This document shows, in pieces, positions 13,655 to 50,815 of a stretch of DNA of 64,000 nt. Positions within the stretch are counted from its first letter, which is position 1. Each line of letters begins with the position of its first letter. Origin of the DNA: Lingula anatina (taxonomy: Eukaryota; Animalia; Brachiopoda); contig CM120640.1 of NCBI GenBank assembly GCA_051362555.1, forward strand, positions 8,060,001 through 8,124,000. The letters run 5' to 3'. The notes under the pieces were generated by a model. That model was not told the origin of the DNA, did no database searches, and worked only from the letters and a program-made list of their open reading frames with translations. Made by a program: the position numbers and the translations under genes.

Positions 13655-16600
13655 ATGTGTGGTAAATATCTCTACTTTTTGTTAAAACAAAGTAAATTGT
13701 CATCTGGATGCTTCTGTCGACTATTTTCAAGTAGATATCACTGCTTCATTTCGCTTAGCGTCACGTTGGTAATTGTTACATAATGGGTTTGCTTGCCGTA
13801 AATTTCATATAACAATTATTCATTTTAGTCCAGCTTCTTCCATGTTTTTTCTAGTATCCTAATATAAGCACATTCAACCTTTCCATTTCAGCGCCAAGGT
13901 TATATGCTGTCGCGTTAAGTGGTTTGTTTATTGTACTGTTCATGTTGGATACCGGTGCAACAAGCCCGGTTTCAACTAATCCATTCCCTTGGTTTCCTAG
14001 CGAAAATTTACCAAAGAGGGACGCTTTCAGAAATTTGATAGACAGATTAAAACGGGTTCAAGCTCGTTCTCAAAGCTTTGGAGCAAGTAGGCCAAATAAT
14101 GTTGGCGAGTCTGTGCTGGATTCATGGGCAGCTAGGGTGCGAAGAGCTCCAACAGCACGTCAAATGAAGAAGTTAAAGATCAAGAACCTAGCTCAAATGG
14201 CACATGAGGTCCGTTCGTTGTGCAAGGAATCATTCAGTTATTACGTGAGTATGTCCTTACACTTAAAAACCTAAGGAATAAATATAAGTAATGGTACAAA
14301 GATAAGCTATCCATCATGAAAGCTTGATACGTTAATGAATAATTCATTTTACTTACTAGAGAGGTGCTCACCCCCTACAAAATTAAACAACAGGTAAACT
14401 ATCCAGGGTGGGTCTTTATTTATATCAGCACGCCGTTAAGAATTATTAAGTGGAGCTCAACTTTAACGGCTGATAAAACTTTTCAGATTGAAAGAAATGC
14501 CTGATTTCAAAAAAACAATATCAGGTTAATTCCGTAGAGTATGAAATGTGCGTTTGTGACATTGTATTAATTTGAAGTATCCAAACCGAATGTAGATGAC
14601 GCTAATAGGTATTCTATGTTTGCTGGAAATGCATTACCTTCGTGCAATTTGGACTTTAAGAGAGACGTTAGGTGAGAGTCAATTCGTTGGAGATATATGC
14701 TAATGCTTCCGATGATCACCCAGTTAATCTCTGTGGTCTTTTCTTCTTTTTTCGTGAGTAAGCACATGCCAATAGGCACGAGTGATGATAAAGTTGATAT
14801 GATATAATAGTTTTGGTTATTGTATGAAATATTACGAACAATTTACAAACCCGTAAAGCAAAGTAAAACTCGATTACATAGTTTATATAAAAAATCAATT
14901 TGATCACATGATTAATCTTCATTATATAGTTCCTGTGACAGGATTCTTTAAGTGGCCAGTTTGAAAACGTGCTACTTTAGTGTAAATGACCATTTATTTA
15001 ATAAATCTGAGTAATGTATAAAATATTTGTATCACTATTAGTAGGTCATCAGACAAAAGGACAGACAGATGCATTATCCCCTAAGTTTAATAGAAGCATT
15101 TTGGTTGATGTGTTACGCTGTTTCCAAGACCTTTGGGACGTTGCTTAAAACGCTGTCCCAAAACCAGCTTGGCAAATAAAATAAATCGAAGCGAAGAGAA
15201 TTCAGACACCAGTGTTAATTTATCACCCCTAGTATTTAAACTTTCTGGTACAGATTTTGGTAGACGTATGTACCTATAATTTACAAACTTGAATAAATTA
15301 CTCTCGTTCAAAAGGGCACGGAGCACGTGCCTTCCATGAGACTGTACGGCCAGTTTCAACGATTTCAGCTATTCCTAATTACCTTACCATAAACCCTAAC
15401 ACAGAGACAGTATATTTCGAAAGTGACTGTTATAGACAGATACAAATTGGATATTTTTCAGTGTAGTAAGGTGAGGGAAAGCATCCCAGGGGTTTTCAGA
15501 AGCTGTTCAGAGTTTTCATCAACTTTAGTTGGAAAGTATGGACTACCCAGACTAGGTTCTGTCAGCGTTGAACCAATGCAAGAGGAGGACGCATTTACGG
15601 TAAGCTTATCTCTTTTTACTGTTTATGATTGTAAGAGAGGATGTACAGACTGAATATCATGTATGCCATAAATATGTTTTCTGAATGGTCTCACAAGAAA
15701 GCAAGGACAAATATATCTCAAATATGCCATCGTCGCTCTATTAATTGACGGCAGTAATGTACTTTTATCATGCAGTAATGTACTTTTATAAACGTTGCCT
15801 TATCTGAAACAGTAATAATAACATGTTAGATTAACAAATTGCAAAAGATAAAATACTATGATGCACTACAGGTCAAAATATTACATTTTGTCATTGATTA
15901 ATGATTGTGAAAATGTTCTATACTTCATCATGTGCCGAAATATCCGCTTAAAGAGGAAGAAATACAAGACATATACAATTGAACATATCGATGTATTCCT
16001 GAACAACTGATTTCTTTAAAAATGCAAAATTCGTTTACTTTAAAGCGTGTACCCTGTGTTCTAGCTACAATGGTATAGGTTAAAGATTCCCAGTTATTAT
16101 TCTAATGACTGCCATGTATTTTTTTTTTTATTTTTAGGTGGCTCTCAACAGCGTGCTCAAGGATGTTTCCCGCTACAGATTTGTGATGGCAAACGTCAGC
16201 AAGATGGAGCAGGAAGCACTGTGCCCTGGAAACCGTGGGTTCTGTCCGCAGCTTGAATGTTCCGGAGCATACACCTTCTATTGCCACATGGAGGACTTAA
16301 TGGATGCCACTTCCAATCTGATAACGAACTTAAAAGATGATGTAAGTCGTTCTCTTTTTGAATTTTGCGTGAAAATTATTACGTTTTAACGATATACTCT
16401 TCTGTTTGTATTCGAGCATTTATTGGTAATATATTTGTGATGGTTAGCTAGCTATGAAGTGTGCACTAAGCTCTGTAGGAGATGAAATGAGTCCTTGTAC
16501 ATGCAAAAGGTGCCCCACTTTCACCATCTCTATTATACGTGCTTGTCAGCAATTATGATACAGAATTCAGAGAATAAGTTTATTCAATGCGTATTTTTTA

Positions 16601-16789
16601 TTGTTTCAGATGGCAACATTGCAGATTCCAGTGGAACAGCAGCGAAATACAGTGACATTAGACAGTTACTCTTTATCTCCTGTTACCACAACGCCGAGAC
16701 AAGAATATACACTAGCATCTTTGCACCAATACTCGAAGCTCTCTTCGGAAATGCAAGAAATGTTTGTATACCTGTACAATCTTGTTTAA
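13655..16789 (+). CDS. Gene B: secreted putative long-chain four-helix cytokine-like protein, 293 aa, with probable furin-cleaved prodomain
   Basis: Exons 13655-13661 (ATGTGTG|gt), 13892-14244, 15462-15599, 16138-16341 and 16610-16789. All boundaries are GT-AG, phases are 1,0,0,0 and the frame is open (882 nt). N-terminus MCAPRLYAVALSGLFIVLFMLDTGATS is a signal peptide; an RVRR site follows. Exon 4 VALNSVLKDVSRYRFVMANVSKME..C..CP..C..FYC is homologous to the D genes. Gene model is strong; the cytokine call is inferred. Confidence 0.8.
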
Positions 16790-17142
16790 TGCTTCAAATT
16801 CTAAAAATATTTTTAAAACAGCATTATGTGATAATACCGGTGTACTTAAGCTTGAGAGAGTATAGTGGTTAGCCATTCAAAATTGGTTGGAGAGATGCCA
16901 GTGCCCCTGATACGAGAAAAAAGAAAGAATTGCTGGAAGCGATTCTTACAAATTTGCACAAATGCCCATTACTCTAACTAGATATCTATGGAAGGTACGC
17001 ACAACCACAGTATATCACTTAGACTGCCGCTGTTTAATATATGAGAACGAAGACATTATGGAGAGGACTGTGTTTGTCGAAATTTTGGTTAGATATCGTA
17101 ATGATCTCGATGCAAATTGCGTTCTCTACACTATAACCTATG

Positions 17143-17182
<40 letters not shown>

Positions 17183-17689
17183 TTGTTGTTGTTGATGGCT
17201 TTCGTTGCACCTGTATTGACCAAATGCATTTCGCTTCTTGTTGGGTTTAGCTGAAAAGAGAGAATTCCTACAAAGTGCAATTCAGTTATGAATTAGGAAC
17301 CTCCTACCGAGCGGGTAGGCACTGAAGTCGTAGGAAGTTCGCGTGTGGCCCTCCCTTCCAAGGTTGATCCCACTTTTACAGATGCAATTACACATTTCCT
17401 ACTGATTGAATATGAATAATCGTATACAACCGGCCACAACTGCTGTTTGCAAGCGTGCCAACAATGTTAACTTGGATGTTTAGAGGTTACTAAGTAAAAC
17501 CAGGCACTTTTTTGTAATATGCCTTGCCATATTGTATTGACGGCATCACAAAGTACGTGCTTTCATTCACATGGAGTAGGGATAAACGTGTAAAGCATGC
17601 TCTTAAATCTCCTTAACTTAATTGCATCATTCTTTATGTGTTTTTAGTGAAAGCGGCGATAGTTAGAGTAGATTTCATATGATATAAGT

Positions 17690-17776
17690 AATTTATTGTG
17701 TCTAATTTATTCTAATTTATTTACTGTATATTGTATCATTTAAGTTATGAATTTGACTGGAGAATACAATAATAAA
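17690..17776 (+). promoter_or_regulatory. AU-rich element cluster and poly(A) signal of gene B
   Basis: TAATTTATTCTAATTTATTTA near 17703-17723; AATAAA at 17771-17776. Confidence 0.5.
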
Positions 17777-20562
17777 GTGTTGAAAATGTTACAGATTGTG
17801 TAAAACTTGTCATTGAGCCATCTGGCTTATCTCCAGGAGAGCTGTGATAGATTGAATCACATGAGACACTCCCAGCACATTTTACCGTAAATCCCTAATC
17901 AGTAAGATGTCATTTTACGGGACCACACTTGGGAAATCTCGATTACGATTTGGTCTACTACATGATCGTGACAAGCGGTGTAAATGTGTTTATATCAACA
18001 CTTGCAATACTAATGCAATACTTTCTTCGCGAGGTCCAGGTGCCACAAGAGCATTTGACACGTGTTTGCACTGGTGATAAATAATTGATTACCCTAATCT
18101 ATTGGACATTGACACATTGTTTTTCTGGTTTAATTTTAGGGAGTAGTTAACCGCGTATAATTGTATTTTTATATCTACTATATTTTAACGGGTTTTCTGC
18201 TCAATTTATATCAGTTCAAATTTATTCGGTGATATGATAATGATAAACGTTTTGATCGCTTTTTATGCAAGTATTTGCAGTATATTATACGTCCACTGAA
18301 AGCTTCTAGTGATTGTTTCTTATCTATTGTCGACTTTCTGTTTTTTTACTGCATCCATCCGTTAAATGTCTGGCGTGTCTAACCACATCAACATTTCTTT
18401 TTGATGTATGGCGGAGCACTTAGGACACTAGGCACATAATCTACAGCAAAATACCAATTACAGAGATGGCCATTTCGCAGAGGTTGTCAATATACAAGAA
18501 GCACCTGTCTGAAAATGAGCCCTGCTAATTCTCTATATTAATCATGCGCTTGACTGCGAAAATAAGGGGACTGGATATTCGGTTTTTGTCCGATCACTTC
18601 GTGTCTCATATGATAAAATTGTCAAATTAACAATGAAATTGCGGCTGGATCAAATAAACGTAATCAACATATCTAACTCGAAGTTGGCACTTCTGTATAA
18701 ATATGTAGTGTTTTATGTTAAGGTATTCATTCATATGCAAAAAATTGACCTGTAATTGTCCACATCAGCACCAATTAAAACAGAAAGATAAAGAGCACAT
18801 CAAACAACTTTCTCAGTTCGTAATTTCCGAAGAGCACACGCAGGTTAACACTGAGAAACTTCAGTCTATTTCCAACCAATTTTAGGGGATTTACACAAGG
18901 AGCAATACACTAATCTTAAGAAATAGAACGTACTGAAGAACAGAGCAGAGTGGATATGTTTAACATATGGTGTTTTCACTGTAAACTTAACCACAAAAAG
19001 TCACTACAGGTCACTATGACTGGTCGGTCAGTGTTTAGAACAGCGGTCTGAAGATCAACCACAGTCTGCTTGGAATGGACATACCTGCTAATACCCAGTT
19101 GAACACCGGCGATAACTGTATATTATTTATAATGTTGAAGTCTAAATATAGAGAAATACTATAGATGTGATTTATATGAGTATCCTAAGGACAGTTCAGC
19201 TTGTTGTGAACTACACTAGCTTTATACGTGGATATATATTTTTCTAGAATTATTAAAATATATATATTTCAATACAGCCATGACAAAGTTTCCGGCTAAT
19301 AGTAAAATGTTCTTTAATGTAGTGAAAGCTGTCTATTACATGTGCAAAATCGTCGCGCACAGAAACAGATGAGACACAGAAACACTCCTTAGTTGGCCTA
19401 AAATCAGAGGAAATAAACACTGGCGGTCAGTATTTCGTATACTGACGCGTGACGAAAAGTTCTGTTCCTCATTGTCGTCTGACGAAATATCCCTCAATGA
19501 AACTTAAGGAGAGGAAACGGAAGTAGACGTTGGCTCGGCTCCCTTTTAAATTTCGTTGTGTTGAATATTTTAAATGATACGGAGTGGCTAATGATTGGTC
19601 GGCCTGCATTTATAATCATAGTATTCAACAAACAGTCGATAAATTGAGCTGAATTCACTCTCCCATAGTTTCTGTAAATATTGCCCTTCCTAATCTTTGT
19701 AATTGTTTCAGTCACACCATAAATCTGGAGTACCGTCTGTACGCCTGCGGTAGGGAAAAGACGGCAAAGGGGTCGTACAAAACATCCTCTCTCACTCACA
19801 CCCTCGTTTCAAAATCGATACCAGTGCAATTGGTCCTGGATAATAAAAGAGGAAGCGATCATATCTAACCCCTGTATCGCTTCTAGATATGATCTTGCAA
19901 ATTATCACAATGAAACTCTGCGACATATTACATGTGGCATCGCAATATTTTAAGTTGGCACTAATGATGTGCTTTTAATTGACTGCATGGGCACAAGTAA
20001 AGATGAGAAAGGAATGTAATGGCTTGGGGAGATGACTTGATGTTCGTTAATTCTTTTTTATTTTCTCTTTACTTTCTCTTATTTTTCTTCTTTTTGAGTT
20101 CACAACATCATTTTTATAAGTAGTACGTGTGCGTCTGAGTTGCAAGAAGTATTTTAATCAGGAAAAAGGACACAACGTAACGGTACTTAGTGTATTTCGG
20201 AGGCTCCCTTACGGTTGTATTTACAAAACAAACACAAGATATCAGAAAACAAACCACATCAAATCTCCTCATGTACTAGTGTTACTGACTATTGATTGTG
20301 ATTTTACTTCAGTCCCTATTCTATTGTCAATAGCATAGGTGCATGTTGCAATAGGGTCACTTAATCAGAGTTCTTGGCCATTGAAAAACTGCCTCGTTAA
20401 CTGAATGATCTATACGATATCATGAAAGTAAAGTGCGTTGCATGTAACGCTTAGCTACCTGAGCTAGATAATAAAACATACTACAGGTTGGATAATTTAA
20501 AGTGTCGTACAAAAAATATAGGTGCAGTAATAAGCATATCTTCACCGGGGACGGAAAATAAA

Positions 20563-20611
20563 GTGTGTGTGTGTGTGTGTGTGTGTGTGAGTGTGCGTGT
20601 GTGTGTGTGTG
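20563..20611. repeat. (GT)n microsatellite
   Basis: Near-perfect GT run. Confidence 0.95.
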
Positions 20612-23144: not shown

Positions 23145-23575
23145 ATTGCGCAACGTAATCAAATTGCAGCATGAAGTCATGGGTCCCATATTATAGGAAT
23201 CTTGATAGGTAATCATATGATATCTTATTATATCCTGACCACATGTATAGGTAAAGTTAAATATACGTTCATTTCAGTATCAATGCTCGAACCATTTATC
23301 AATGGAAATACCAGGATATGAACGTATATGGAATGAGCTACTTCTACTATGAATAGTTTATTTTGGAATGTACAGTAAAGTTACCTGTTATCCATTGTCA
23401 GTGACGAAGAGGTATGTATACTGCAAGAACGAAACGGGATATTCCCAATAAAATTGTTTTAGAAAAATGAGGAAATATACCTCAGCGGTCATGGGTCCGA
23501 ATATTAGGTAATTAATGTTAATTAAACATATCTAAAAATACAGTCAATCCCATATATATATATATATATATATAT
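23145..23575 (+). promoter_or_regulatory. Promoter of gene C with C/EBP-like and NF-kB-like sites and a (TA)n/TATA element
   Basis: ATTGCGCAAC at 23145-23154; GGGATATTCC (fits GGGRNNYYCC) at 23436-23445; (TA)n at about 23552-23575, roughly 60-85 nt before the ATG. Confidence 0.5.
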
Positions 23576-23636
23576 TCACTTTTCTCAAATTCAAAAATCA
23601 AAAAAACTGATATTGACAAGCAACTCATTAGGCATA

Positions 23637-26083
23637 ATGGGATTCAAAGGTAGGTCAAATCAGTGCAGTGCTACATGTAAGGTGGATATATCAATTATTC
23701 CATAACGTTTTGTACCATGACTAATTCAGTGCATTGTTTCACCTCAATGTTTTTCTTTATTCCAGATCTTTTAACAATTATATGCGTACTGCTACACCAG
23801 GCACCGACAATCAAACCAGCAAGTATAACAACGGGATCCAGCGTTCAGAAAGATATAATCGTAGATATACGATCAGCGGCAACAGGTTTGATTGATAGTA
23901 TTGACACTATGTTGCTCGATAACAAATTCAAAATGGTAAGGACGTATCTAAGTTTCCCCCTGTCATTATCTTGATTTATTAATATATTCTAACCTTAATC
24001 AACAGAATCTGTCTGAGCCGACACAAATGTGCGATTCTCAGAAATCACGTACAGAATCACGGAAAAAATAAATGGGTTAAAACGAGTCACCGTCACTACC
24101 TGGAAACACAGTGTGCCTATAACCCGCAAGCAACAGCGGTGAAAAGCACCTGTTGGACCGCTAGCGAAATGTTTCACGTAATTCATTTTTATGGCGTAGA
24201 CAAACGACTCACTTATCGTAATTGTGTTTTACGTCAATTTCATGGTTATTGTGTATTTAAGTTATTTACTATGTACTTGTGTTTGATTAACTACTTTTTT
24301 CCAGTTGATAGAGAATTACAACCATTTCAATGTGGGATTTCCAACTTCATCGTGCAGTAACTACCAATCAGGAGACGTTATGTTGCAGGTATTTGCAATA
24401 ACTACGTGACTTTTCCATGTATCAGGATAAAAAATTCTATCATCATTTCCAGAAATGGGTTTAATGCAGATATTTTTATGACTACGCAATCTTAAGTTGC
24501 GCTATTTTATAACCTTTTACTTGTGCATGATGTCTTTCAGTATTTTTTTTAAAGAAATGTTCAATAAATTGCTCAAGAACTATTAAACTACCTACCATAG
24601 CCATTTGTTAACTCAAACCAAAATTAATGTTTTTCGGTCTGTTTAGCACGTAGTAAACGACATAGGGTGCTACCAGTCAATATTGATGACACTCAACAAT
24701 GCCTCCTGTGCATCGAGTTCAGAAAACCCCGTGTGTTTGATCTGCCGGGTAGGGATTTGCAGTACAGTCGTGAACGACTTGTTGAATTACAAAAACCAAA
24801 TACAAGTGAGTTGGTTTATTCTCTCGTTGTGCCTTTGGTAATGCTTGATTTAAAAACCATTTAAAAGATTAATTGTTGGACTTGTGCATTCACATTTCGT
24901 GATAATAATGATAATGATAATGGTAAAAGAAATCCTCATACATGAAGATTATTTATAAGATTATTTATTACATCAGGCCAGTGTGATCCTGTGTTTCTCC
25001 ACTTTATTGTTTCTGGTCTCTCACAGTCCCTTGCTCCCATTCTTCAATCTATCTTTCATTGACATTAATCTCCTTGATCACCTTGACAGTCTCTGTTAAC
25101 GGTCAGTTTATAAATAACCCGCTCCTGTTCTTCCTCCCGTCCTTATCCCTAGCTTTCCGTCCCTAGTGACTACACGGCTGAACAACTGACCTAATAGCTA
25201 TAGGCTTATCACCCAATTTTATTTAGAGTTTAGTGTTAGTGTTTTATGAATAATCCTGTTCACAGTGTGTATCTCATTTCTTTTCCTCTCATTTAATTAT
25301 TATGTGTCTTGTCATCCAATCTTTTCTTTCATTATTATACTATTTTAGTCAGTTCAATCAATTTTTGGATCTCATTTCATCCGTTTCTATAAAAAATCGG
25401 TACCTTTCTATCAGTTTTTGTTATTTTAATTAAAAAACATTAAAATGTGTTACACAACTTTTTCTGTTTTTTTTTTTTTTTCTTAAGATATTCCTCTTTT
25501 TCCTTGCAATCTTACTTTTTCTATTCACATATTGGTTTGTCCCATGTGGTACTACACACATTCGGTTAGGAAAATTGTAAACCGCCAACCTGCTTCTACT
25601 TTCCCCTTTTCCATCTTAAGTTAGCACACACTGGTCAAGGAAGTGACAGATTTTTTTACTCAGTTCTGTGTGCATTCTTTTATTCTAAGCGATCCATCAC
25701 CTTGATTGTCTTCTAATTTAGGAACTCTTGAGTTAAGCATATTGTTTATCAAAGTATTCAGTTGATAAACTGATGTGCTGATTCATTTATCCTGGCAAAG
25801 GCAGGTGTTAATAAAATATTCTTCTGTTTTATTTTGTATTTTGGTAAATTAAGAAAAAATAGTTGTGCATTTCAACTCAGCAGCAGAACTGTTGTTCTTT
25901 CAGAGTCTTAGTAGAAACACCATATCGCCACAACGTCTGCGTTCCAGTTGTACCAGCCTTGCCGGGGTCTTTAGCAAAACTGTTGCCACGAGGGTCGTGG
26001 CCTTATCTCAAGCTGTCACTGCACTGCAACATGTCACAAGGAGTCACCTGAAGTGTTTCACTTTGCCTCCAATTGTCGGATGA
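23637..26083 (+). CDS. Gene C: secreted putative IL-6/IL-11-type four-helix cytokine-like protein, 201 aa
   Basis: Exons 23637-23649 (ATGGGATTCAAAG|gt), 23766-23935, 24305-24388, 24647-24805 and 25904-26083, i.e. 13/170/84/159/180 nt, phases 1,0,0,0, open frame. Signal MGFKDLLTIICVLLHQAPTIKPA. Helical segments: IIVDIRSAATGLIDSIDTMLLDNKF, LQHVVNDIGCYQSILMTL, TVVNDLLNYKNQIQSL and ATRVVALSQAVTALQHVTRSHL. AATAAA at 26366. Confidence 0.8.
24960..25190 (-). mobile_element. Possible degraded LINE 3' fragment in gene C intron 4
   Basis: Purine-rich minus strand ending in an AATAAATAA-type tail; no intact ORF. Confidence 0.25.
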
Positions 26084-28149: not shown

Positions 28150-28540
28150 ACCTATTTTATGACCACCCCGACCCCACACTACATAAAACAACCCTTTATA
28201 ATAAAACCCCAGGAGTTGGGTACATGAAAAATGGACTCCCATCTTCGGATAACGCGGTCTGTTAAACTGCTACGGAAATTCCCAGGTACTTTTTATCCTA
28301 AACTCTGCACACGGAAAAGACTCCATGGTGTAACTTCAACAGAATATATATTTTACTAAGCTAAAAGCGTGGTCAAATCCAAGCTTCACGCCATACCTCT
28401 CTCCTCCTAATCTCTCCCTCAAGATTTAAGCTCACAGATTTGCTCAACTTTATCAATTAAATTGTCAATCACATAACTTATAAACTGATTGGTTACTTCA
28501 GACTAAAGTCCACCTCCTCAAGTGAGCACGACTCAGTAAC
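28150..28540 (-). mobile_element. Degraded L1/Tx1-like reverse transcriptase fragment
   Basis: The minus strand gives, across stops and frameshifts, SLK*PISL*, then GMA*SLD and a R.G.P-like segment. This is the order of the RPISL, LSLD.KAFD and QGxPLS motifs. Confidence 0.35.
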
Positions 28541-29678
28541 TCCATGTAATCAAGATCTAACAGATTACTAGCTTGAAACGAAGGACATTAAAATTTGAAC
28601 TGTTAGGTGTAAAATATTATCTTATGCCACTTATACATCTTAGCTTCCCATGTGTAAATTTTATCAGATAAAAAAAACTTCCACTGGTTGAATTAATAAA
28701 TGTATGAAACATAAAAATATAAAGTGCAATGTTTTCAATACTGTGGTCCCTGACACTTTATTAAAAGTGCTGGTTAGAAATATGTGCTTGCAAGCGTTGT
28801 AAACATGTTAAACTGACGGAATGTATGATACCTGTATGCGTGGCCTTTATGGTTTTATATGGTTCAAAAATCAGATTATTTACATATATAATAAACACTC
28901 CATTGGCTTGGACAAGGTCTAAATTAATTAGATTAACATTTAACTTAATCCAACGTTAAAACCGACCAAAACGTTTTTGTTTTGGAGGATTCTGTCAAAT
29001 TCCCTCAGTGGCAGCCGGCGATTTGTTTGCACTGCATAGGGATACGGTGTGCATTATGCGTTAACTTTTGACCCCTGACATCATCTAGGTTCGTCGATTT
29101 CCAGTTAATCAATATGACCTATAAAGATATCTTATATCATCAAGGGCTTTGACCTAGCAGTGGAGAGGGTCCTTAGCTATTAAGATGAAACGCGATTGTG
29201 ATTTCTGAGAAAAAGGCTCTTTCTTTTTCCAGTAAAACAAACGTAAGATAAGACCCTTTGGTATTCAACACTGATTTAATTCATCAATAAACACTTAAAG
29301 AGATTAAAACTGCAAAATAGTAAGAAATATATGATTATGAATCATTTAAACAGTAGTTGTTTGTCTTAATATAACACAAAAAAATCACAAAACAGCTGAC
29401 ATCCCGTAAATCTCCACCTCTTTCTGACAAATATAAAAAAGTTATAAAAATAAAGTTTTAAATAATAAACAAATTAACCTAATCAGTTAATCAAAAATTC
29501 AAGTTAAAAGATATAAAAAATAATAGCATCTATAAAAGTAAAATAGTTGTTTATATCTATAAGCCATTTGTTTGTGTATAACATCTTCTGATTGATAAAT
29601 AAACATGAGATATGCAGTAAACTGCAAAATGCATACGTGGTGCTAAAATAAAGACTCAGTCTTTCAAAGTTTCTACAG

Positions 29679-31896
29679 TCAGATTTGAGCCATATCTGAG
29701 TTATTGACAGAAAAAACATGGAAAAATGCCAACATGCAGTCTTTAAATTCTTCCGTAATTTCTTGAAGATTATAGAGGGCCAGTTGAGTATAGACTGAAG
29801 TGACAAAGTCTGATAGCTTTTGTGGTCTGACAAACTTCACCTGAAGTGCGAGGGAGTGGTTACCGGCAATTTCTGTGTTAAAATTGGACAGCTGCAAAAT
29901 AAGAGAATATGTTATAATGTATACTAGTTTAGACATTTTGTTTTTACATATACATTAGTAAGTTAATTTGTTAGTGAATTATGCCATTTTTAAGTGATTT
30001 CGAACGACTGCTTTTCTTAAAGATCTAATTTTCACGATTTCTATGTATCATACAGTATCTACGTGTATTATTGCTCAATTTAAAACACCAAGTGACAGTA
30101 GTAGTATACAGCGCTTTTATGACACTGATGTATACATATATAAACTTTACGTTATTATGCTCGGAATATTATTGGTTTGTTTTCATCATTTTTTATCAAA
30201 GCTATTCGTTCTAACAGCCTCCTTTAAATAAATATATCCCTCTTTATCATTCTACTCACCGTTCTTCGAAGAAAAAACATAGTATCGTTCACACTTTTCA
30301 TGACGTCACCAAGACTGGTGCAGTAAAAGCTGTTGTCGTCATTGATTGTGCCACACTGGTAGTTGTCGGTGGGACAGCCAGATTTGGAGTTACACAGTCG
30401 ACGATACTCCAGCATAGACACATTGCCGAGAACTAACTTATAAGCGGTAAGATCATGGTGAAAACTGTTCAAAGCCACCTAAAACAAAAAAGCCATTTTA
30501 TAGTTATTGTAAGTTCAAAACTTAAAGTATAAAAAGTTTATAGATCAACTATCTTCAGCCTCTTGAGCGTAATCAATTTTCCAAGTAAAGATCTGAGAAT
30601 TACTTCAAGTACTAAAACGTTACATAATAACAGCTACCATTGCATATTTAGACATTTTCAAATAAAATTTAATTTAGGCATTTATTTGAATAAGGTACAT
30701 ATTGCAAAATATAAAAGTAAAAACAGGAAGTCCTAAAAACTTACCGCAAGAGCTTCCACTTCTTCCAAGTATTTTGTCTTTGTTTGAATGAAGAGTTTGG
30801 CACACGTGTTTCTAGGAAAGTACCAGCCTCCTAATTTGCCAGGATCCGCAGTTTTGGGGTCGATATTTGTATAAGGTGCAACTCGTGGCTGGTTCACCTG
30901 CATAAAATGATACTGTTGTCTCAATTTGTCGAATTCAAATCAAAATATTTAAGCACAGATCTTTTTATATTCTAATGTGGATAATTTGTTTTCTGAAAAT
31001 GACATTACATCAAGACTGAAATATATGAGAAATATGCGGTGAATTTTACTGTCTTGAAAAAATAGAAGGGAGACGAGTGATAGAATCAGTAAGTACATGC
31101 AGGCCCGTAGCCAGGGGGGTGCGGGGGGATTCGAAAGAACCACCCTTTTTGCTGGGAAAAGGTCCACTTTGGGTAAAAATTGATCTATGTACCTGAGAAT
31201 TTTATGGTAAAAGGTCCACTTTTTCAGCAAACGAACCCCCCCCCCCCCCCCCCCATGAATTTGCTGGCTACGGGCCTGACATGTAAGTGTCAGTTTAAGT
31301 TAACCAAGACTTACAGTCAGACAATATATTGTATATACATTAACCATTACTTTTCTACCCTGTAGTTAATATTTCACAGTATTAAGAATCCATGTTCACT
31401 CACGTAAGTTTGGTAACTGCTCTGTGTCACAGTGTACAAATTTATCTGGGACCTGATCAGCCGGGTGAGATTCCCTTTAAGAAACTCCATTAAAGTCGGG
31501 TTCATGTAGTTGACGGGTCTTTGGCAGGAAAAATCAAGGCTAGTTACCAATGGACCATTGGTCCGGGCAGGATAATGCCAGTTTAGGTTTGACATATGGT
31601 CAGCAGTCGGTAGGGGGTGGATTGTTGTGCTTGATTCAACAATCGCCAAAGCAAATAAAAAGGCAGCAGTTCCTAGGAAGACAATCAGACAAGATATCAA
31701 AGTTTTGATCAATTAAAACTTTTGTCTGTTGGTCTTAATGCCACAGACTCACTTTAAATTTAAGATGCAAAAAATGCAATATTAGCGAATCCAGTTATGG
31801 ATCCCGGCATTTATCAAAAACCAATTCATCATTCAATTTCTTCAATAAGATCGGAAGAAAAGTTCACTCACCTGTTAGGCTGAGTTTGAAATCCAT
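29679..31896 (-). CDS. Gene D1: secreted helical cytokine-like protein, 292 aa (tandem copy 1)
   Basis: Exons 31896-31872, 31672-31404, 30897-30745, 30478-30260 and 29891-29679; phases 1,0,0,0; open frame. Signal MDFKLSLTGTAAFLFALAIVES. Helices: LMEFLKGNLTRLIRSQINLYTVTQSSYQTY, VALNSFHHDLTAYKLVLGNVSMLE, LGDVMKSVNDTMFFLRRTL and VYTQLALYNLQEITEEFKDCMLAFF. Confidence 0.85.
31100..31278. mobile_element. 179-bp MITE with 5-bp target-site duplication in D1 intron 2
   Basis: Terminal inverted repeats CAGGCCCGTAGCCAG / CTGGCTACGGGCCTG, flanked by ACATG on both sides. The empty site TACATGTAAG is present in D2 (about 36376) and D3. Confidence 0.9.
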
Positions 31897-35020: not shown

Positions 35021-37707
35021 TTAGAAAAGAAAAATGTCTGAGTTGTTGACCGAAAAAATATGGAAAAATGCCAACATGCAGTCTTTAAATTCTTCCGTAA
35101 TTTCTTGAAGGTTATACAGGGCCAGTTGAGTATAGACTGAAGTGACAAAGTCTGATAGCCTCTGTGGTCTGACAAACTTCACCTGAAGTGCGAGGGAGTG
35201 GTTACCGGCGATTTCTGTGTTAAAGTTGGACAGCTGCAAAATAAGAGAAAAGATTTATAACGTGTATCAGTTAAGGGTTTTTGTTTTACACTCTTTTACA
35301 TTAGTTGGTGAATAAAACCTTAGTTGCGTGATACTTGACGACTCTTTTTCATACAATTCTCATCATTTTCATGTATCATTTCAATATTTAACTATTCAAA
35401 TTAATGCGTAGCAGAACACAGTGCACTTGTTTCTTTCATACTGACATATAAAACTACGTTATCTATTTGCTTACATTTTATCCTTATTTCAATTTATATT
35501 AAAACTTAAAATATTTTTTCTTTTTGTCATTCTACTCACCGTTCTTCGAAGAAAATACGTAGTATCGTTCACACTTTTCATGACGTCACCAAGACTGGTG
35601 CAGTAAAAGCTGTTGTCGTCATTGATTGTGCCACACTGGTAGTTGTCGGTGGGACAGCCAGATTTGGAGTTACACAGTCGACGATACTCCAGCATAGACA
35701 CATTCCCGAGAATTAACTTGTAAGCGGTAAGATCATGGTGAAAACTGTTCAAAGCCACCTAAAACAAAAAAGCCATTTTATAGATATTGTAAGTTCAAAA
35801 ATTAAAGCATAAAATGTATAAAGACTTAGGCCTACTATCTTCTGAGCGTTATCAATTTTCCAAGTAAAGATCTGAGAGTAACATCAGGTACTAAAACGTT
35901 ACATAATAACAGCTACCATTGCATATTTAGACATTTTCAAATAAAATTTAATTTAGATATATATTTGAATAAGGTAAAATTTGCAAAATATTAAAGTAAA
36001 AACAGGTAGTCCTAAAAACTTACTGCAAGAGCTTCTACTTCTCCTTCCAAGTATTTTGTCTTTGTTTGAATGTAGAGCTTGGCACACGTGTTTCTAGGAA
36101 AGTACCAGCCTCCTACTTTGCCAGGATCCGCAGTTTTGGGGTCGATATTTGTATAAGGTGCAACTCGTGGCTGGTTCACCTGCATAAAATGATACTGTTG
36201 TCTCGATTTGTCGAATTCAAATCAAAATATCTAGGCACAGATCTGTCCATATTCTAATGTGGATAATTTGCTTTCTGAGAACGACATTACATCAAGACTG
36301 ATATACATGAGACATATTCGGTGAATTTTACTGTTTTGTAAAAATACAAGGGAGACGAGTGATAGAATCAGTAAGTACATGTAAGTGTCAGTTTAAGTTA
36401 ACCAAGACTTACAGTCAGACAATATATTGTTTATGCATAAAGCATTACTTTTCTACCCAGTACTTTACTTCGCAGTATTAAGAACCCATGTTCACTCACA
36501 TAAGTTTGGTAACTGCTCTGTGTCACAGTGTACAAATTTATCTGGGACCTGATCAGCCGGGTGAGATTCCCTTTAAGAAACTCCATTAACGTCGGGTTCA
36601 TGTAGTTGACGGGTCTTTGGCAGGAAAAATCAAGGCTAGTTACCAATGGACCATTGGTCCGGGCAGGAAAATGCCAGTTTAGGTTTGACATATGGTCAGC
36701 AGTCGGTAGGGGGTGGATTGTTGTGCTTGATTCAACAATCGCCAAAGCAAATAAAAAGGCAGCAGTTCCTAGGAAGACAATCAGAAAAGATATCAAAGTT
36801 TTGAGATTAAAATTTGTCAATTAAAACTTTTGTCTGTTGGTCTTAATGCCACACCCTGAGCTTCAGAGATAACTTGACACTAACCTCTTCACAATAGCCT
36901 ATCTTCATCGTGTCAAGTTACCTCTGACCACATTCGATTGCCCCCGCCGCCCGCCAATCAAATTTCAGTTACCTCTGACGAAAATAGTTTGACCTAGTTT
37001 ATATAAGCCAATCGAATCCATGTTTAAAAAATTTTTCACCAAAGTTTGGTGAAAACGCTGATTGGTTGAAAGTCCAGAATTATGTCCAATGAGGAAATTG
37101 TATTTCGTTGCGTCCGCATAACCGTCAATCGGCACTCCTCGGCTGATTCCGCAAGCTCCATACTAACAACAAAGTTATTGTCGAGTGCGGAGACATCCGA
37201 GTAGTGCCGAGTGCATAACCGCACACAAAGAAAGCATGGCGTCTCCTACGAGTGACTACGTAAAAGAATGTGTTAAGTTATCTCTTGATTCTTTGCGAAA
37301 TATGAGTATATCGGAATTGAAACCAGAGCAGTTTGAGGCCCTGCATCATTATCTACTGAGGGATGATGTATTTTGCGTGCTGCCCACAGGTTACGGCAAG
37401 TCCCTGATATTCAGCCTTATCTTTGATTGGTCCGGATTTGAACAAAGCGCGCTTTGACTCGTTCTCGTTCATTGGCTAGATCGTTCAATGAGTCACTGAA
37501 GGCGGGCTTTAAATTTGATTGGCGGGCGGTGCGGGCAATCGAATGTGGTCAGAGGTAACTTGACACGATGAAGATAGGCTATAGTGAAGAGGTTAGTGTC
37601 AAGTTATCTCTGAAGCTCAGGGTGTCAAAAACCAATTCATCATTCAATTTCTTCAATTAGATAGGAAGAAAAGTTCACTCACCTGTTAGGCTGAGTTTGA
37701 AATCCAT
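35021..37707 (-). CDS. Gene D2: secreted helical cytokine-like protein, 293 aa (tandem copy 2)
   Basis: Exons 37707-37683, 36768-36500, 36179-36024, 35758-35540 and 35233-35021; frame and splice sites intact. Confidence 0.85.
36851..37625. mobile_element. Non-autonomous DNA transposon with about 115-bp terminal inverted repeats carrying a RecQ-type helicase N-terminal fragment (AcademH-like)
   Basis: ACACCCTGAGCTTCAGAGATAACTTGACAC.. (36851-36965) is the reverse complement of 37511-37625. An internal + ORF (37236-37457) reads ELKPEQFEAL..DVFCVLPTGYGKSLIF, the RecQ Q-motif plus Walker A. Absent from intron 1 of D1, D3 and D4. Confidence 0.85.
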
Positions 37708-38123
37708 TTTCTTTGCAATGCACTGTCGTATTGTAGGTGATTTAAACTTGTATCAAATTAACGATCAGATTTTCTTCGTACGCTTTTATACAATTGTTAC
37801 CCATCTTAAGACGCTATTTTGATCTCAACAAAAATATTAGAATATTTTGGGTATCCACTTACCATCTTATTTAGATACCTCCGAAACAATAAGATTGGAA
37901 ATTTCAAAGCTGACGTATTATAATAAGTTTATAAGTCATGGTTTAAAGATGGTAATGTATTATGTATTGTAAATGGACAGGCTAAGAAATCATTGATATC
38001 AGTATTCATACCTACTTCCGCCACTTTAGCTGAACAAATACCGCAAGTAAAATTTCTTTGTTTTCCTCCTTGAGCTCTTTTTAAAATTGCAGTAAATAGG
38101 CAAAATAGTTTCGACTTATGGTT

Positions 38124-38158
<35 letters not shown>

Positions 38159-40447: not shown

Positions 40448-42412
40448 TTAGAAAAGAAAAATGTCTGAGTTGTTGACCGAAAAAATATGGAAAAATGCCA
40501 ACATGCAGTCTTTAAATTCTTCCGTAATTTCTTGAAGGTTATACAGGGCCAGTTGAGTATAGACTGAAGTGACAAAGTCTGATAGCTTTTGTGGTCTGAC
40601 AAACTTCACCTGAAGTGCGAGGGAGTGGTTACCGGCGATTTCTGTGTTAAAGTTGGACAGCTGCAAAATTAGAGAAAAAAATTTATAAAGTATATCAGTT
40701 AAGGGTTTTTGTTCTTACACTTTTTTACATTAGTTGGTGAATAAAACCTTAGTTACGTGATACTTGACGACTCTTTTTCGTACAATTCTCATCATTTTCA
40801 TGTATCATTTCAATATAAAACTATTCAAATTAATGCGTAGCAGCACACAGTGCACTTGTTTCTTCATACTGACTTATAAAACTACGTTATCTATTTGCTT
40901 ACATTTTATCCTTATTTCAATTTATATTAAAACTTAAAATATTTTTTCTCTTTTTCATTATACTCACCGTTCTTCGAAGAAAAAACATGGAATCGTTCAC
41001 ACTTTTCATGACGTCACCAAGACTGGTGCAGTAAAAGCTGTTGTCGTCATTGATTGTGCCACACTGGTAGTTGTCGGTGGGACAGCCAGATTTGGAGTTA
41101 CACAGTCGACGATACTCCAGCATAGACACATTGCCAAGAACTAACTTGTAAGCGGTAAGATCATGGTGAAAACTGTTCAAAGCCACCTAAAACAAAAAAG
41201 CCATTTTATAGATATTGTAAGTTCAAAACTTAAAGCATAAAATGTATAAAGACTTAGGCCTACTATCTTCTGAGCGTTATCAATTTTCCAAGTAAAGATC
41301 TGAGAGTTACATCAGGTACTAAAACGTTACATGATAACAGCTACCATTGCCTATTTAGACATTTTCAAATAAAATTTAATTTAGATATATATTTGAATAA
41401 GGTAAAATTTGCAAAATAGTAAAGTAAAAACAGGTAGTCCTAAAAACTTACTGCAAGAGCTTCTACTTCTCCTTCCAAGTATTTTGTCTTTGTTTGAATG
41501 TAGAGCTTGGCACACGTGTTTCTAGGAAAGTACCAGCCTCCTAATTTGCCAGGATCCGCAGTTTTGGGGTCGATATTTGTATAAGGTGCAACTCGTGGCT
41601 GGTTCACCTGCATAAAATGATACTGTTGTCTCGATTTGTCGAATTCAAATCAAAATATTTAAGCACAGATCTGTTCATATTCTAATGTGGATAATTTGCT
41701 TTCTGAGAATGACTAAAATACATGAGAAATATTCAGTGAATTTTACTGTCTTGTAAAAATAGAAGGGAGACGAGTGATAAAATCAGTACATGTAAGTGTC
41801 AGTTTAAGTTAATCAAGACTTACAGTCAGACAATATATTGTATATGCATAAAACATTACTTTTCTACCCAGTACTTTACTTCGCAGTATTAAGAACCCAT
41901 GTTCACTCACATAAGTTTGGTAACTGCTCTGTGTCACAGTGTACAAATTTATCTGGGACCTGATCAGCCGGGTGAGATTCCCTTTAAGAAACTCCATTAA
42001 CGTCGGGTTCATGTAGTTGACGGGTCTTTGGCAGGAAGAATCAAGGCCAGTTACCAATGGAATATTGGTCCGGGCAGGATAATGCCAGTTTAGGTTTGTC
42101 ATATGGTCAGCAGTCGGTAGGGGGTGGATTGTTGTGCTTGATTCAACAATCGCCAAGGCAAATAAAACGGCAGCAGTTCCTTGGAAGACAATCAGACAAG
42201 ATATCAAAGTTTGGAGATTAAAATTGCTCAATTAAAACTTTTGTCTGTTGGTCTTAATGCCACAGACTCACTTAAATTTAAGATGCAAAGGAATCTTATG
42301 ACCTGATTGATTTTAGCGAATCCAGTTATGGATCCCTGCATTTATCAAAAACCAATTCATCATTCAATTTCTTCAATATTCACTCACCTGTTAGGCTGAG
42401 TTTGAAATCCAT
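40448..42412 (-). CDS. Gene D3: secreted helical cytokine-like protein, 293 aa (tandem copy 3)
   Basis: Exons 42412-42388, 42179-41911 (AAG acceptor), 41607-41452, 41186-40968 and 40660-40448; frame intact. Confidence 0.85.
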
Positions 42413-42487
42413 TTTCTTTGCAATGTGCTGTCGTATTGTAGGTGATTTAAACTTGTATGAAATTAACGATCAGATTTTCTTCGTACG

Positions 42488-42622
42488 CTTTTATACAATT
42501 GTTACCCATCTTAAGACGCTATTTTGATCACAACAAAAATATTAGAATATTTTGGGTATCCACTTACCATCTTATTTAGATACCTCCGAAACAATAAGAT
42601 GGGAATTTCCAACGCTGACGTA
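42488..42622 (-). promoter_or_regulatory. D3 promoter: TATA box, consensus NF-kB site and CRE-like site
   Basis: TATAAAAG at 42495-42488; GGGAATTTCC at 42601-42610; TGACGTA at 42616-42622. Confidence 0.7.
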
Positions 42623-45047: not shown

Positions 45048-46955
45048 TTAAAATAGAGAAATGTCTGAGTTGTTGACCGAAAAAATATGGAAAAATGCCA
45101 ACATGCAGTCTTTAAATTCTTCCGTAATTTCTTGAAGGTTATACAGGGCCAGTTGAGTAGGCCCTATAGACTGAAGTGACAAAGCCTGATAGCTTTTGTG
45201 GTCTGACAAACTTCACCTGAAGTGCGAGGGAGTGGTTACCGGCGATTTCTGTGTTAAAGTTGGACAGCTGCAAAATAAGAGAAAAGATTTATAACGTAGG
45301 CCTATATCAGTTAAGGATTTTTGTTTTTACACTTATTTTACATTAGTTGGTGAATAAAACCATAGTTAAGTGATACTTGATGACTCTTTTACGTACAATT
45401 CTCATAATTTCCATGTTTCATTTCAATATTTAACAAATCGTTATAACACGTAGCAGCACACAGTGCATGTGCTTCTTTGATAGTGACATAAAAAACTGCT
45501 GTCTAAATGCTCACATTTTATCCTTGTTCCAATTTATATTACAACTCTTCGTCGTTACTTCTTCCATAAAATATTTTTTCTCTTTATCATTCTACTCACC
45601 GTTCTTCGAAGAAAAAACATGGAATCGTTCACACTTTTCATGACGTCACCAAGACTGGTGCAGTAAAAGCTGTTGTCGTCATTGATTGTGCCACACTGGT
45701 AGTTGTCGGTGGGACAGCCAGATTTGGAGTTACACAGTCGACGATACTCCAGCATAGACACATTGCCGAGAACTAACTTGTAAGCGGTAAGATCATGGTG
45801 AAAACTGTTCAAAGCCACCTAAAATAAAATGTCACTTTATAGAAACAAAGTTTAAATATTTTGAAGCATATACACAATTCCTACCATTGCATGTTATAAA
45901 TCCTTAAAAGTTTCAATGATTATATTGAAATAATGTACATTACGAAATTATACAATAGAAACGGCTAATACATGGTCCTTAGAATTTACCGCAAGAGCTT
46001 TCACTTCTCCTTCCAAGTATTTTGTCTGTGTTTGAATGAAGAGCTTGGCACACGTGTTTCTAGGAAAGTACCAGCCTCCTAATTTGCCAGGATCCGCAGT
46101 TTTGGGGTCGATATTTGTATAAGGTGCAACTCGTGGCTGGTTCACCTGCATAAAATGATACTGTTGTCACAATTTGTCGAAGCGAAATCAAAATATCTAC
46201 GCACGGATCTGACCAGATTCTAATTTGAATCTTTAGCCTTCTGAGGATTACATTTAGGTCTACATCATGTCTGAAATACATTAGAAACAGCCAGTAATCC
46301 TTACTGTCATGTAAAATTAGGAGGGAGATGAAAGTGATAGAATCAGTAAGTATATGTAGGTGTCAATTTAAGCCACCATCAGACGACATATTGTATATAA
46401 CATTTAGCATTACTATTCTACCCTGTAGTTGATAATTCACAGAATTAAGAATCCATGTTTACTCACGTAAGTTTGGTAACTGCTCTGTGTCACAGTGTAC
46501 AAATTTATCTGGGACCTGATCAGTCGGGTGAGATTCCCTTTCAAAAATGCCATCAATGTCGGGTCCATGTAGTCAACGTTTCTTTGGCAGGAAGAATCGA
46601 CGTTAGTTACCAATGGACTATTGGTCCGTGCAGGATAATGCCAGTTTAGGTTTGGGATATTGTCAGCAGTCGGTAGGGGTCGGAATGTAGTGCCTGATCC
46701 AACACCCGCCAAGGCAAATATGATGGCAAAATTTCCTAAGAAAAAAGTCAGACATGTTAACAAAGTTTTGCGATTAAATTTGTCTAATTAAAACTATTCT
46801 CAGTTAGTCCAAATGCCACAAACTGAAATAAAGTTGCAAAATAAATCTCAAATCTCTAATCGAGCCCTGCATTTATCAAAACCAAATGTACCATTCAATT
46901 TCTTCGATAAAACCGGAAGAAAAGTTCACTCACCTGTTATGCTGAGTTTGAAAAA

Positions 46956-46958
<3 letters not shown>
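45048..46958 (-). pseudogene. Gene D4: tandem copy 4, frameshifted in the last exon (C-terminal helix lost)
   Basis: Exons 46958-46934, 46735-46467, 46145-45990, 45818-45600, then from 45267. A 7-nt insertion GGCCCTA (45160-45166) gives ..TSVYRAYSTGPV* with the stop at 45141-45139. Confidence 0.8.
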
Positions 46959-46999
<41 letters not shown>

Positions 47000-48119
47000 A
47001 ATGCGCTGTCGTATGGTAGACGATTTAAACTTTAAACTCATCAAATTAGCGATCGGATTTACTTCTTACGCTTTTATACAAATGTTACCCATCTTAAAGC
47101 GCTATTTTGATCTCAACCAAAATATTAAAATATTTTGGTATCCACTTCCATTTGGACATCCTATTGAAACAATAAGATGGGAATTTTCATCGCTGACGTA
47201 TTGTATAACGCTGACATTTTAGTAGCTAATAAGTAACAGTTTAAAGATGGTAATGTCTCATATACCGGGTATTGTAAAAGGACAGGCTAAGAAATCAATG
47301 GTATCATTATTCAAACCTACATCCGCCACTTCAACAAATACTGCAGGTATAATTTCTTTGTTTTCCTCCTTGAGCTCTTTTTAAAATTGCATTAAATTAG
47401 CTAAGTAGTTTCGACTTTTGGTTTTTCATTTATTTTTTAAAAGTTTAATATCTTAATATCTTAAGAAAATTGAAATATGTTATTGTTTCCTATCGGTTTG
47501 GTCTGCAGTTTTAATGGATGTGAATTTTGGTTTAGAAATGATAAAACCCAAGTAATTTGTCTACTAGTTTTTCATAATTTTTCCCATCGAAAAAACAAAC
47601 AATCCTAAATAGAATCCGCAGTTTATTACATAACGCATAAAGTGCATTAAAAGGAAATGCCATAACCTTGGAGGATCTTTTACATTGGTAAGACAAGGGG
47701 AAAAAATAAAAAAATCCGAGCCAACCGGGCGAAATTTTTACTAAAATATTTAGGAAATATGGATGTAAAAATTACTTCGTTTTTTCACATTTCATTCGGT
47801 ATGTTGTTTTTGTGGTGTGAGAAGGACACGTGTGTACCCCTGTGAAAGAAGTGGTGCCTGTTACCCGACCCACTCCTCCCACCTTACTGCATTGAAAAGT
47901 TCATACCGCACAATAACTGACAGAATGCAGACGCAGATAGGAAAACTGTTATAAGTTGCAGTAATTTCTGCCTATTAAGAGAGGGCATTTTGCCTCCCTC
48001 ATTTACGTATATGAGACTGCCACTAAAGAGCAAGACAGAAAACACGTGAGGTTCAAATTTGGCTTGTCATAATTTCTCACTTGGACTTTACAAAACACGA
48101 CGAAGCGATGGCAGATGCA

Positions 48120-49507
48120 ATACTTCTCCTTCCAAGTATTTTGTCTGTGTTTGAATGAAGAGCTAAGCACACTTGTCTCTAGGAAAATACCAGCCAGGAT
48201 TCACATTTTTGGGGTTGATATTCGTACAAGGTGCAGCTCGCGGCTGATTCACCTCCATAAAATAATGCTATTTTTATCACTTTTTATTACTTTGGCGAAG
48301 CGAAATCAAAATATTTCCGCACGGATCTGACCAGATTCTAATTTTGATCTTTCTTCTTCTGATGATTACATTTACCACAAGTCTGAAATACATTAGAAAT
48401 GCCCAGGAGGCTTATAAAAATAGGAGGGAGACGAAAGGGAGAGAATCAGTAAATTAGAGTAAATCTAAGATAAAGAAGAGTTACCATCAGACATTATATT
48501 GTATATTACATAAAGTAAAGAATTATTGTTCTACCCAGTAGTTTATTTCATAGTATTAAGAATCCATGTTCCCTCACTATCTACTGTAGTTGCCAGTCTC
48601 AGGCATGATCTTTTAAGATTAAAATTCTCAGACAAGATATCAAAAGTTAAGGGTTAAATTAAAACATTTTACTCTAGAGTAGATATATTCTTAAGTCTGC
48701 CTAAGTTCTACAGGAACATTTGAGGAAATTTTGATTTTATTATAGGTGTTCATGACCTGGACACAATGGACAGGGGTTCCTAATTATTTGTTGCTTTATG
48801 TGTGTAAATACGCTTCTTAATTTGCATCACAGATGGTCTTGTCTTTTCTAATTGTAGTCCTGCTGAAAAGTAATATAGCGAAGGTTGTATGTATAGGCCT
48901 AAATGTTAAAAATGACCTATTGCACACAATGCATTTGATTTTCTCTTTAAAATAGTCATAACCTCTCCAAAACAAGTTGCGAAAAAATCTCATAGCCTAA
49001 TCAATCCTATCGAACTCAATTACATCTATCAAAAAACAAATTATTTTTCAATAAAATTAGAATCGCATCCACTCTCCTGTTATGCTGAGGTGAAAAATAT
49101 TTTGTTGTTCTTCGCAGTGAACAGTCATATCATATAAAGGACTTCTATCATAACTTACTCATTTTAACGATTTGATTTCCTTCTTACCCTTTTATACTTT
49201 TGTTGCACATCCTAGATGCTATTTTGATCTCAACCAAAATATAAGAATATTTTACATCCAATTTATACATCTTATCGTAACAATAAAATGGGGATTTTTA
49301 GCCTTGACGTACATGTATCCTGTAACGTTGATATAACAGTAGTTAATAAGTAACAGATTCAAGGTGGTAACGTGTTATATACTGCATACGCACAGGTATT
49401 AATATCACAGATATGAGTATTCAAACTTAGCTGAACAGACACTGGTAAGTCAATTCCTTTGTGCTTTTCTCCTTGTAACTTTTCTAGGATTGCAGCAAAA
49501 TAGTTTC

Positions 49508-49545
<38 letters not shown>

Positions 49546-49560
49546 TGTTTCATATATTTT
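48120..49560 (-). pseudogene. D5: degraded relic of the D gene (exon 3, exon 1 and promoter remnants)
   Basis: 48120-48265 aligns with exon 3 with deletions. Exon 2 is nearly all deleted (about 48550-48660). The exon 1 remnant (about 49070-49100) has ATG changed to ATA and the donor GT changed to GA. TATA, kB and CRE remnants lie at 49190-49315. No exons 4-5. Confidence 0.8.
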
Positions 49561-50814: not shown

Positions 50815-50815
50815 A

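Follow-up and report, generated by a model that had tools for sequence, protein, structure and literature searches.

According to a 2025 paper, IL-6-family cytokines are known from jawed vertebrates only (PMC12284397), and the helical cytokines known from invertebrates are insect Unpaired and the growth hormone (GH)-like and related genes of amphioxus (PMC9010856). A 2026 survey places JAK, STAT, and IL-6-receptor-like proteins in molluscs and a STAT in Lingula, and it reports no IL-6-like ligand in invertebrates save insect Unpaired and a shrimp lectin (PMC13203501). Both papers describe ligands of the IL-6 type as unknown in most invertebrates. For IL-1, the problem of hidden cytokines has been solved, Lingula included (PMC13736523). 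Here, we describe a gene cluster in the brachiopod Lingula anatina, in a stretch of 64,000 nucleotides (nt) of contig CM120640.1 (assembly GCA_051362555.1, positions 8,060,001 to 8,124,000, forward strand; "the window," whose coordinates are used throughout). The cluster consists of five intact genes of three types (B, C, and D1 to D3), one frameshifted copy (D4), and one remnant (D5). The genes are real and are likely to be new members of a known superfamily. We favor, with considerable confidence, the reading that they encode lineage-expanded long-chain class I helical cytokines acting via a Domeless/gp130-type receptor and JAK/STAT, based on the exon layout, the predicted signal peptides, four predicted exon-mapped helices, and language-model neighbors in the long-chain clan.

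An IL-12p35-like protein has reportedly been found in oyster; our literature search did not turn it up. That search, in which subscription journals were thinly covered, found no description of Lingula helical cytokines or of this locus (the supplements of PMC13203501 and of bioRxiv 10.64898/2026.05.30.728932 could list these loci), and no such Lingula gene is named in the excerpts of PMC9756803, PMC8557429, PMC13524488, PMC12409108, and bioRxiv 10.64898/2026.10.26.761873.

Five-exon genes at the locus

The final gene models, rebuilt from the sequence letters (splice sites and frames), are as follows, with lengths in amino acids (aa).

Gene B: 13655-16789, plus strand, 293 aa; exons 13655-13661, 13892-14244, 15462-15599, 16138-16341, 16610-16789
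Gene C: 23637-26083, plus strand, 201 aa; exons 23637-23649, 23766-23935, 24305-24388, 24647-24805, 25904-26083
Gene D1: 31896-29679, minus strand, 292 aa, intact; exons 31896-31872, 31672-31404, 30897-30745, 30478-30260, 29891-29679
Gene D2: 37707-35021, minus strand, 293 aa, intact; exons 37707-37683, 36768-36500, 36179-36024, 35758-35540, 35233-35021
Gene D3: 42412-40448, minus strand, 293 aa, intact; exons 42412-42388, 42179-41911 (AAG acceptor), 41607-41452, 41186-40968, 40660-40448
Gene D4: 46958-45051, minus strand, frameshifted; exons 46958-46934, 46735-46467, 46145-45990, 45818-45600, exon 5 from 45267
D5 remnant (pseudogene): 49533-48122, minus strand; promoter, exon 1 region, intron 2, and exon 3 interrupted by an in-frame stop codon

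In B, C, and D1 to D3, the reading frame stays open across five coding exons; all introns are GT-AG, their phases are 1-0-0-0, and the first coding exon is 7, 13, or 25 nt long. The first intron is in phase 1 in all six loci (B, C, and D1 to D4). The window has a base composition of 36% G+C (animal DNA); in the rebuilt genes, the coding sequence has 43 to 46% and the introns 29 to 36%. The initial annotation had described seven loci and, for six of them, this layout with a tiny first exon. The layout is upheld for B, C, and D1 to D4 both by the rebuilt models and by a blind parse of the window; the count of seven reduces to five intact genes, D4 being frameshifted without helix D and the seventh locus being only a remnant.

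The blind parse was given only the consensus at splice sites, the intron phases, broad ranges of exon size, and the requirement for a hydrophobic N-terminal segment. In its strict setting, the window yielded five models, corresponding precisely to B, C, D1, D2, and D4, and 12 null windows yielded none. In a looser setting, the top six places went to the six loci (scores of 32.3 to 39.9, with one alternative site picked in each of B and D3), followed by a neighboring MAM-domain gene at 27.6; the best of 300 Markov null windows scored 30.5, and none attained 32. Because the exon-size ranges were chosen with the genes already known, this result speaks to the loci being real genes and not to what they encode. 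No further family members were found in the window by tblastn or by the exon-layout parse. The short motifs first noticed are also in place: the helix B motif, D-[LVI]-x-x-Y-x-x-[VI]-[LM], is located at 16159 and 24656 on the plus strand and at 30457, 41165, and 45797 on the minus strand (D2 has a one-residue variant), and the GLP, GFP, and YFP motifs lie in exon 3.

When exon 4 of B and D was used as the query, two proteins were returned, both uncharacterized L. anatina RefSeq models (LOC106150477 and LOC106150473). B is isoform X1 of LOC106150477 (XP_013378784.1), with 292 of 293 residues identical, and the three RefSeq isoforms of B, themselves predictions, use the junctions of the rebuilt model. 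The RefSeq D model begins at a Met within exon 2 (residue 65 of the rebuilt D) and hence lacks the signal peptide, and exon 4 of C had no match in the protein collection (36 candidates; a weak test). The suggestion that the locus is probably unannotated fails for B and one D copy, which have RefSeq models with no functional name. Since the RefSeq D model lacks its signal peptide and C is seemingly unmodeled, protein-based screens would miss both.

Predicted secretion and fold

The B, C, and D proteins are predicted to be secreted without a membrane anchor, as judged by hydropathy only (2.1 to 2.8 for the N-terminal 11 residues; 0.55 to 1.56 for the best 19-residue segment after residue 35). 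In B, the predicted signal peptide is followed by an N-terminal extension of about 65 aa (40 to 65 aa in B and D) that contains two R-x-K/R-R sites (aa 54 and 84) and then by four predicted helices; a furin-type site just before helix A is a candidate cleavage site. AlphaFold models, of low confidence, were considered for B (the 200-aa isoform) and D. The B model has helices at residues 6-34, 65-91, 119-144, and 176-199, and the D model is similar, its last helix broken and uncertain; both have four long predicted helices in a domain of about 170 to 200 aa, as long-chain class I cytokines do. The predicted helices follow the exons as initially proposed, save in D4, which lacks helix D: helix A ends near the end of exon 2, an AB loop of 30 to 45 aa lies in exon 3, helices B and C in exon 4 are joined by an insert with four Cys (seen between predicted helices B and C of B), and a long CD loop and helix D fall in exon 5. 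The A-B and C-D links are long in both models, and the cysteine pattern also fits an up-up-down-down arrangement; exon 5 has one Cys in D, none in B, and two, 35 residues apart, in C. By language-model search of the ESM Atlas, the look-alikes of B are long-chain helical-cytokine clusters (GH/prolactin [PRL], IL-6, Unpaired, and LIF; top score, 0.93), and cytokine-clan look-alikes were found for D also.

Foldseek searches of the B and D models against the PDB and viral models gave nothing at an E of ≤0.001 and no significant cytokine match, the B model matches only generic helical bundles, and the ESM Atlas structure search found no cytokine; cytokines are not in the VIA list for B, an absence that does not rule out a cytokine. 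For D, the best cytokine rows (LIF, OSM, CNTF, CLCF1, and IL-12p35) stand at the score level of generic bundles. The proposed splicing went unseen in RNA: among few reads, no exon junction of B, C, or D1 appeared. An expanded invertebrate helical-cytokine locus, as initially proposed, is still the best reading given the layout, the predicted signal peptides and helices, and the language-model neighbors; of the fold that it implies, four long helices are modeled at low confidence, and the up-up-down-down packing has no significant cytokine match.

Could the proteins instead be some other secreted four-helix bundle, of an up-down type used in defense, mucus, shell matrix, or lipid binding, with a cytokine-gene layout acquired by chance? 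The generic matches of B and the outcome of the Atlas structure search would fit, as would the four-Cys insert, which is not known as a vertebrate cytokine feature, and the tandem array, because young arrays of this kind are common for secreted effector genes. We nevertheless think this quite improbable given that cytokine-clan look-alikes were found for both B and D, that the genes agree with cytokine genes in their phases, tiny first exon, and helix positions, that both models have long A-B and C-D links, that half of a helix B signature (described below) sits at its expected place, and that neither protein matches any other family.

Placement among helical cytokines

Vertebrate IL-6-type and GH/PRL genes have intron phases 1-0-0-0, and the Lingula genes combine this five-exon layout with a distribution of predicted helices over the exons like that of IL-6 and GH genes. 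The layout cannot choose between the two, because GH/PRL genes, with five to six exons (PMC9546618), overlap in exon number with IL-6 genes, which have five (PMC3271213). A type I interferon or other class II cytokine was also considered and is ruled against by the phase 1 first intron of all six loci: interferon genes have phases 0-0-0-0 and five helices (bioRxiv 10.64898/2026.05.30.728932).

With IL-6, IL-11, and G-CSF, the Lingula genes have in common five coding exons in the same phases, the signal peptide, four predicted helices, a hydrophobic-Pro motif in the AB loop, and the second half of the helix B signature; in B, as in IL-11, the first intron comes 7 nt after the start (PMC3271213). 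The full IL-6/G-CSF/MGF signature, C-x9-C-x6-G-L-x2-[FY]-x3-L (PMC3271213), is missing in B, C, D1, D3, and D4, where only its second half is present, at the expected place and with Asp for Gly. The Trp that forms the site III hot spot of IL-6 and IL-11, where helix D begins (PMC7378365), has no counterpart, as exon 5 lacks Trp in B, C, and D; a Tyr is aligned between B and D at this position, and the conservation of such sites is poor even in the IL-6 of fish (PMC3271213). Other differences are the four-Cys insert between helices B and C, the N-terminal extension of B and D, the tandem amplification, and the lack of any sequence-level match. Searches with the B and D proteins (E up to 10) and with 12 single exons (E up to 1) gave no match to Pfam IL-6, IL-11, G-CSF, GH/PRL, LIF/OSM, or Unpaired, and Pfam, PDB sequence, and profile searches matched B and D to no other family, the PDB sequence searches giving weak hits only. 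Cyanovirin-N dimers, returned by the PDB sequence search with a two-sequence profile and matching over the Cys-rich part (E of 2e-4 and 8e-4), were dropped because cyanovirin-N is an all-beta fold, which clashes with the helical models.

The IL-6/IL-11/G-CSF label of the initial annotation is thus not favored over a GH/PRL-like or an Unpaired-like one: the layout is shared, Hormone_1 is commoner than IL6 among the top look-alikes of B, and the cysteine half of the signature and the site III Trp, whose lack prevents filing under IL-6/G-CSF, are missing. Judged by their sequences, B, C, and D cannot be filed as GH/PRL either. GH/PRL proteins have four conserved Cys in two disulfides, one at the C-terminal end (PMC9546618). 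The Lingula proteins differ from GH/PRL (PF00103) and amphioxus GH-like proteins in having no Pfam match and, in B, no long-range pair; the C-terminal cysteine pair is found in none of B, C, and D and is missing in amphioxus GH-like as well (PMC9546618). LIF, OSM, CNTF, CLCF1, and IL-12p35 are the best cytokine rows in the fold searches of D and are among the Atlas neighbors, whereas exon 5 of the Lingula genes has no FxxK, and LIF, OSM, and CNTF genes have fewer exons. Drosophila Unpaired 1 to 3 (PF15972), the Domeless ligands, are likewise secreted helical cytokines of a protostome, and one Atlas neighbor of B (0.90) has Unpaired in 13% of its members; but there is no Pfam match, and Unpaired has been reported from insects only (PMC13203501). 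Unnamed arthropod, mollusc, and chordate ESM Atlas clusters are similar (229 to 325 aa, a minority of members Hormone_1 or IL6, scores of 0.90 to 0.93 to B), but no sequence-level link from them to Lingula B or D was found.

Do the proteins then have the cytokine fold and yet serve as GH/PRL-like hormones or bind another receptor, such as CRLF3? This alternative overlaps with the reading that we favor on the fold and differs on receptor and role, and we consider it unlikely, if less so than an unrelated bundle, that the receptor is not of the Domeless type or that the role is wholly endocrine. For it speak Hormone_1 in 12 to 32% of the members of B's three best Atlas rows, the AB-loop-to-helix-D disulfide proposed for C and D, which is a feature of GH/PRL (and of LIF and OSM), the lack of a site III Trp or FxxK in exon 5, the exon number of GH/PRL genes, and the occurrence of CRLF3 in invertebrates (PMC12409108). 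On the other side are the missing C-terminal cysteine pair of vertebrate GH/PRL, a point softened by amphioxus, and, weakly, the kappaB- and STAT-type sites, the scarcity of reads in bulk RNA, and the rapid turnover of copies described below, which suit an inducible immune signal better.

Relatedness of B, C, and D

Aligned over exons 4 and 5, B and D are about 25% identical (scores of 102 to 106, beaten by 0 of 1,000 shuffles) and have the four Cys of exon 4 in common, which marks the two as homologous at the sequence level. C has no significant alignment to B or D, as would be expected of an unrelated secreted gene that happens to sit in the cluster. We regard that view as the weaker one, though not strikingly so, and lean toward C being a divergent paralogue tied to B and D by layout and motifs. 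C has the same phases and exon roles, a kappaB-type site at a D3-like distance, and a helix B motif near the start of exon 4. With D, it has in common the starting residues M-x-F-K, the exon 3 motif FPxxxC, and a Cys late in exon 5. For such motif matches, the helix B motif included, the chance is about 0.001 and 0.002, but they were picked after the fact; the AB-loop Cys and late exon 5 Cys of C and D are both missing from B. Outside Lingula, no sequence relatives were found, the homologue searches having given two Lingula clusters only. Four long proteins from a library of 1.84 billion were rejected as unrelated, with repeated weak stretches; the one examined is a kinase-like repeat.

Duplication and decay in the D array

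The D copies are arranged in tandem units of 4.5 to 5.4 kb, their introns diverge by 1 to 25%, and the ratio of nonsynonymous to synonymous change (pN/pS) is 0.15 to 0.16 for D1 versus D2 and D3, 0.75 for D2 versus D3, and 0.5 to 0.6 for pairs with D4. The D array is a product of tandem duplication, with constraint on the D coding sequence and decay of D4 and D5. In exon 5 of D4, an insertion of 7 nt (about 45158-45166) throws the reading frame off and leads to a stop at 45139, leaving a protein of 265 aa without helix D. LOC106150473, the RefSeq model most similar to it, has an undamaged exon 5, so this lesion may be an allelic one. Exons 2, 4, and 5 of the D5 remnant were not found at the locus.

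The D4 insertion can be read as five bases flanked by a duplicated TA. A palindromic 8-mer, TAGGCCTA, has 6 copies in the window versus 0.38 expected, one of them an insertion in D4 intron 4, and resembles the footprint left by a DNA transposon that targets TA; TAGGCCTA-type positions are 9611, 12679, 35827, 41255, 45158, 45297, and 48894, the D4-breaking copy being a one-base-longer variant. Given the TA duplication and the recurrence of the related 8-mer, we infer that the D4 insertion was probably left by a transposon rather than introduced by a sequencing error. D3 and D4 (compared over 40448-41607 and 45051-46145) differ at 10 of 585 aligned bases of exons 3 to 5 (1 of 219 in exon 4), at 13 to 23% of the introns between these exons, and at 36 of 269 bases of exon 2, a pattern in which gene conversion may homogenize the helical core while the N-terminal part diverges.

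Could the array be an assembly artifact or be made up of dead copies? Two members, D4 and D5, are broken, and RNA support amounts to few reads, but intron differences of 1 to 25%, the open frames of D1 to D3, and the low pN/pS of the D1 pairs (against 0.75 for D2-D3) make this very improbable. Moreover, a 565-aa database protein from another L. anatina assembly (P0003) fuses several D copies, probably as an annotation artifact. With four exon 3 copies in tandem, it argues that the array is not peculiar to the window's assembly; its copies differ from those of the window, which suggests allelic variation. Two repeats also lie in the array: a short G+C-rich interspersed repeat at 31100-31260 (D1 intron 2), found again at 10129-10215, and the following element.

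Inverted-repeat element: 36851-37625, strand not assigned, in D2 intron 1, where it replaces part of the intron; 115-nt arms, 97% complementary

Within this element, an open reading frame (ORF) fragment at 37167-37454 on the plus strand has a weak DEAD/RecQ-like helicase match (PF00270; E of 0.001, below cut-off).

Transcription and surroundings

Reads from runs labeled L. anatina were compared with B (runs X1, X4, X7, and X9) and with C and D1 (X2, X4, X5, and X8; 6 to 30% of each run read). For B, one read pair (≥99%) covers the end of exon 5 and the 3' region in one of four runs (X4); X1, X7, and X9 had 0 reads and are no test. D1 exons have a depth of 0.2 to 0.5 in one of four runs and C exons none, and most reads in the D1/C region fall, in all four runs, on the D1 intron 2 repeat and come from other loci. 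The interval 28300-28600, which lies between genes C and D1 and past the 3' end of each, is weakly transcribed, with reads in all four runs and loose ends, and is probably another repeat. Upstream elements, all of them motif matches only, comprise TATA boxes 83 to 120 nt 5' of the ATG in B and D1 to D4, a site of NF-kappaB consensus type 198 nt 5' of the D3 start codon, and the following sites.

B upstream: 13240..13561, plus strand, STAT-type palindrome (415 nt 5' of the ATG) and TATA box (100 nt 5' of it)
C upstream: 23436..23446, plus strand, NF-kappaB-type palindrome 201 nt before the ATG

To the left, head to head with B, lies a multi-exon gene (500-9000, minus strand) in which a Thr/Ser-rich linker accompanies three or more MAM-domain stretches; to the right, 50000-64000 holds 20 ORFs with no Pfam match above cut-off. 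These are the neighbors that a look for IL6/IL11/CSF3 synteny, within the window only, encountered. Some minus-strand stretches there (61927-62241 and 56192-56446) read like exons of a gene.

Proposed model and significance

By analogy, B, C, and D probably work like IL-6, LIF, Unpaired, or growth hormone. In the model that we propose, a stimulus would induce the genes from low resting expression via the NF-kappaB (C and D) and STAT (B) sites, and the protein would enter the secretory path, B losing its N-terminal extension at the furin-type site just before helix A. The core would pack up-up-down-down; its B-C insert would be knotted by disulfides, and C and D would have a further disulfide from the AB loop to helix D. 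The ligand would then cross-link or dimerize a class I cytokine receptor, leading to JAK/STAT activation and immune or growth signaling.

We speculate further, at somewhat less than an even chance, that B, C, and D are the brachiopod part of a widespread unnamed protostome family of long-chain cytokines, represented by the arthropod and mollusc Atlas clusters, which would share with IL-6, G-CSF, LIF, GH, and prolactin one five-exon gene of the bilaterian ancestor. Its members would be the missing lophotrochozoan ligands of Domeless/gp130-type receptors, with a knotted B-C insert, a cleaved extension, and an NF-kappaB-to-JAK/STAT relay.

If the cytokine reading is true, the cluster would supply clonable, named candidate JAK/STAT ligands in a third lophotrochozoan lineage, where surveys found none, and the five-exon 1-0-0-0 cytokine gene would date back to the bilaterian ancestor. 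Exon phases together with a signal peptide would then be a simple recipe for finding such genes where homology search fails.

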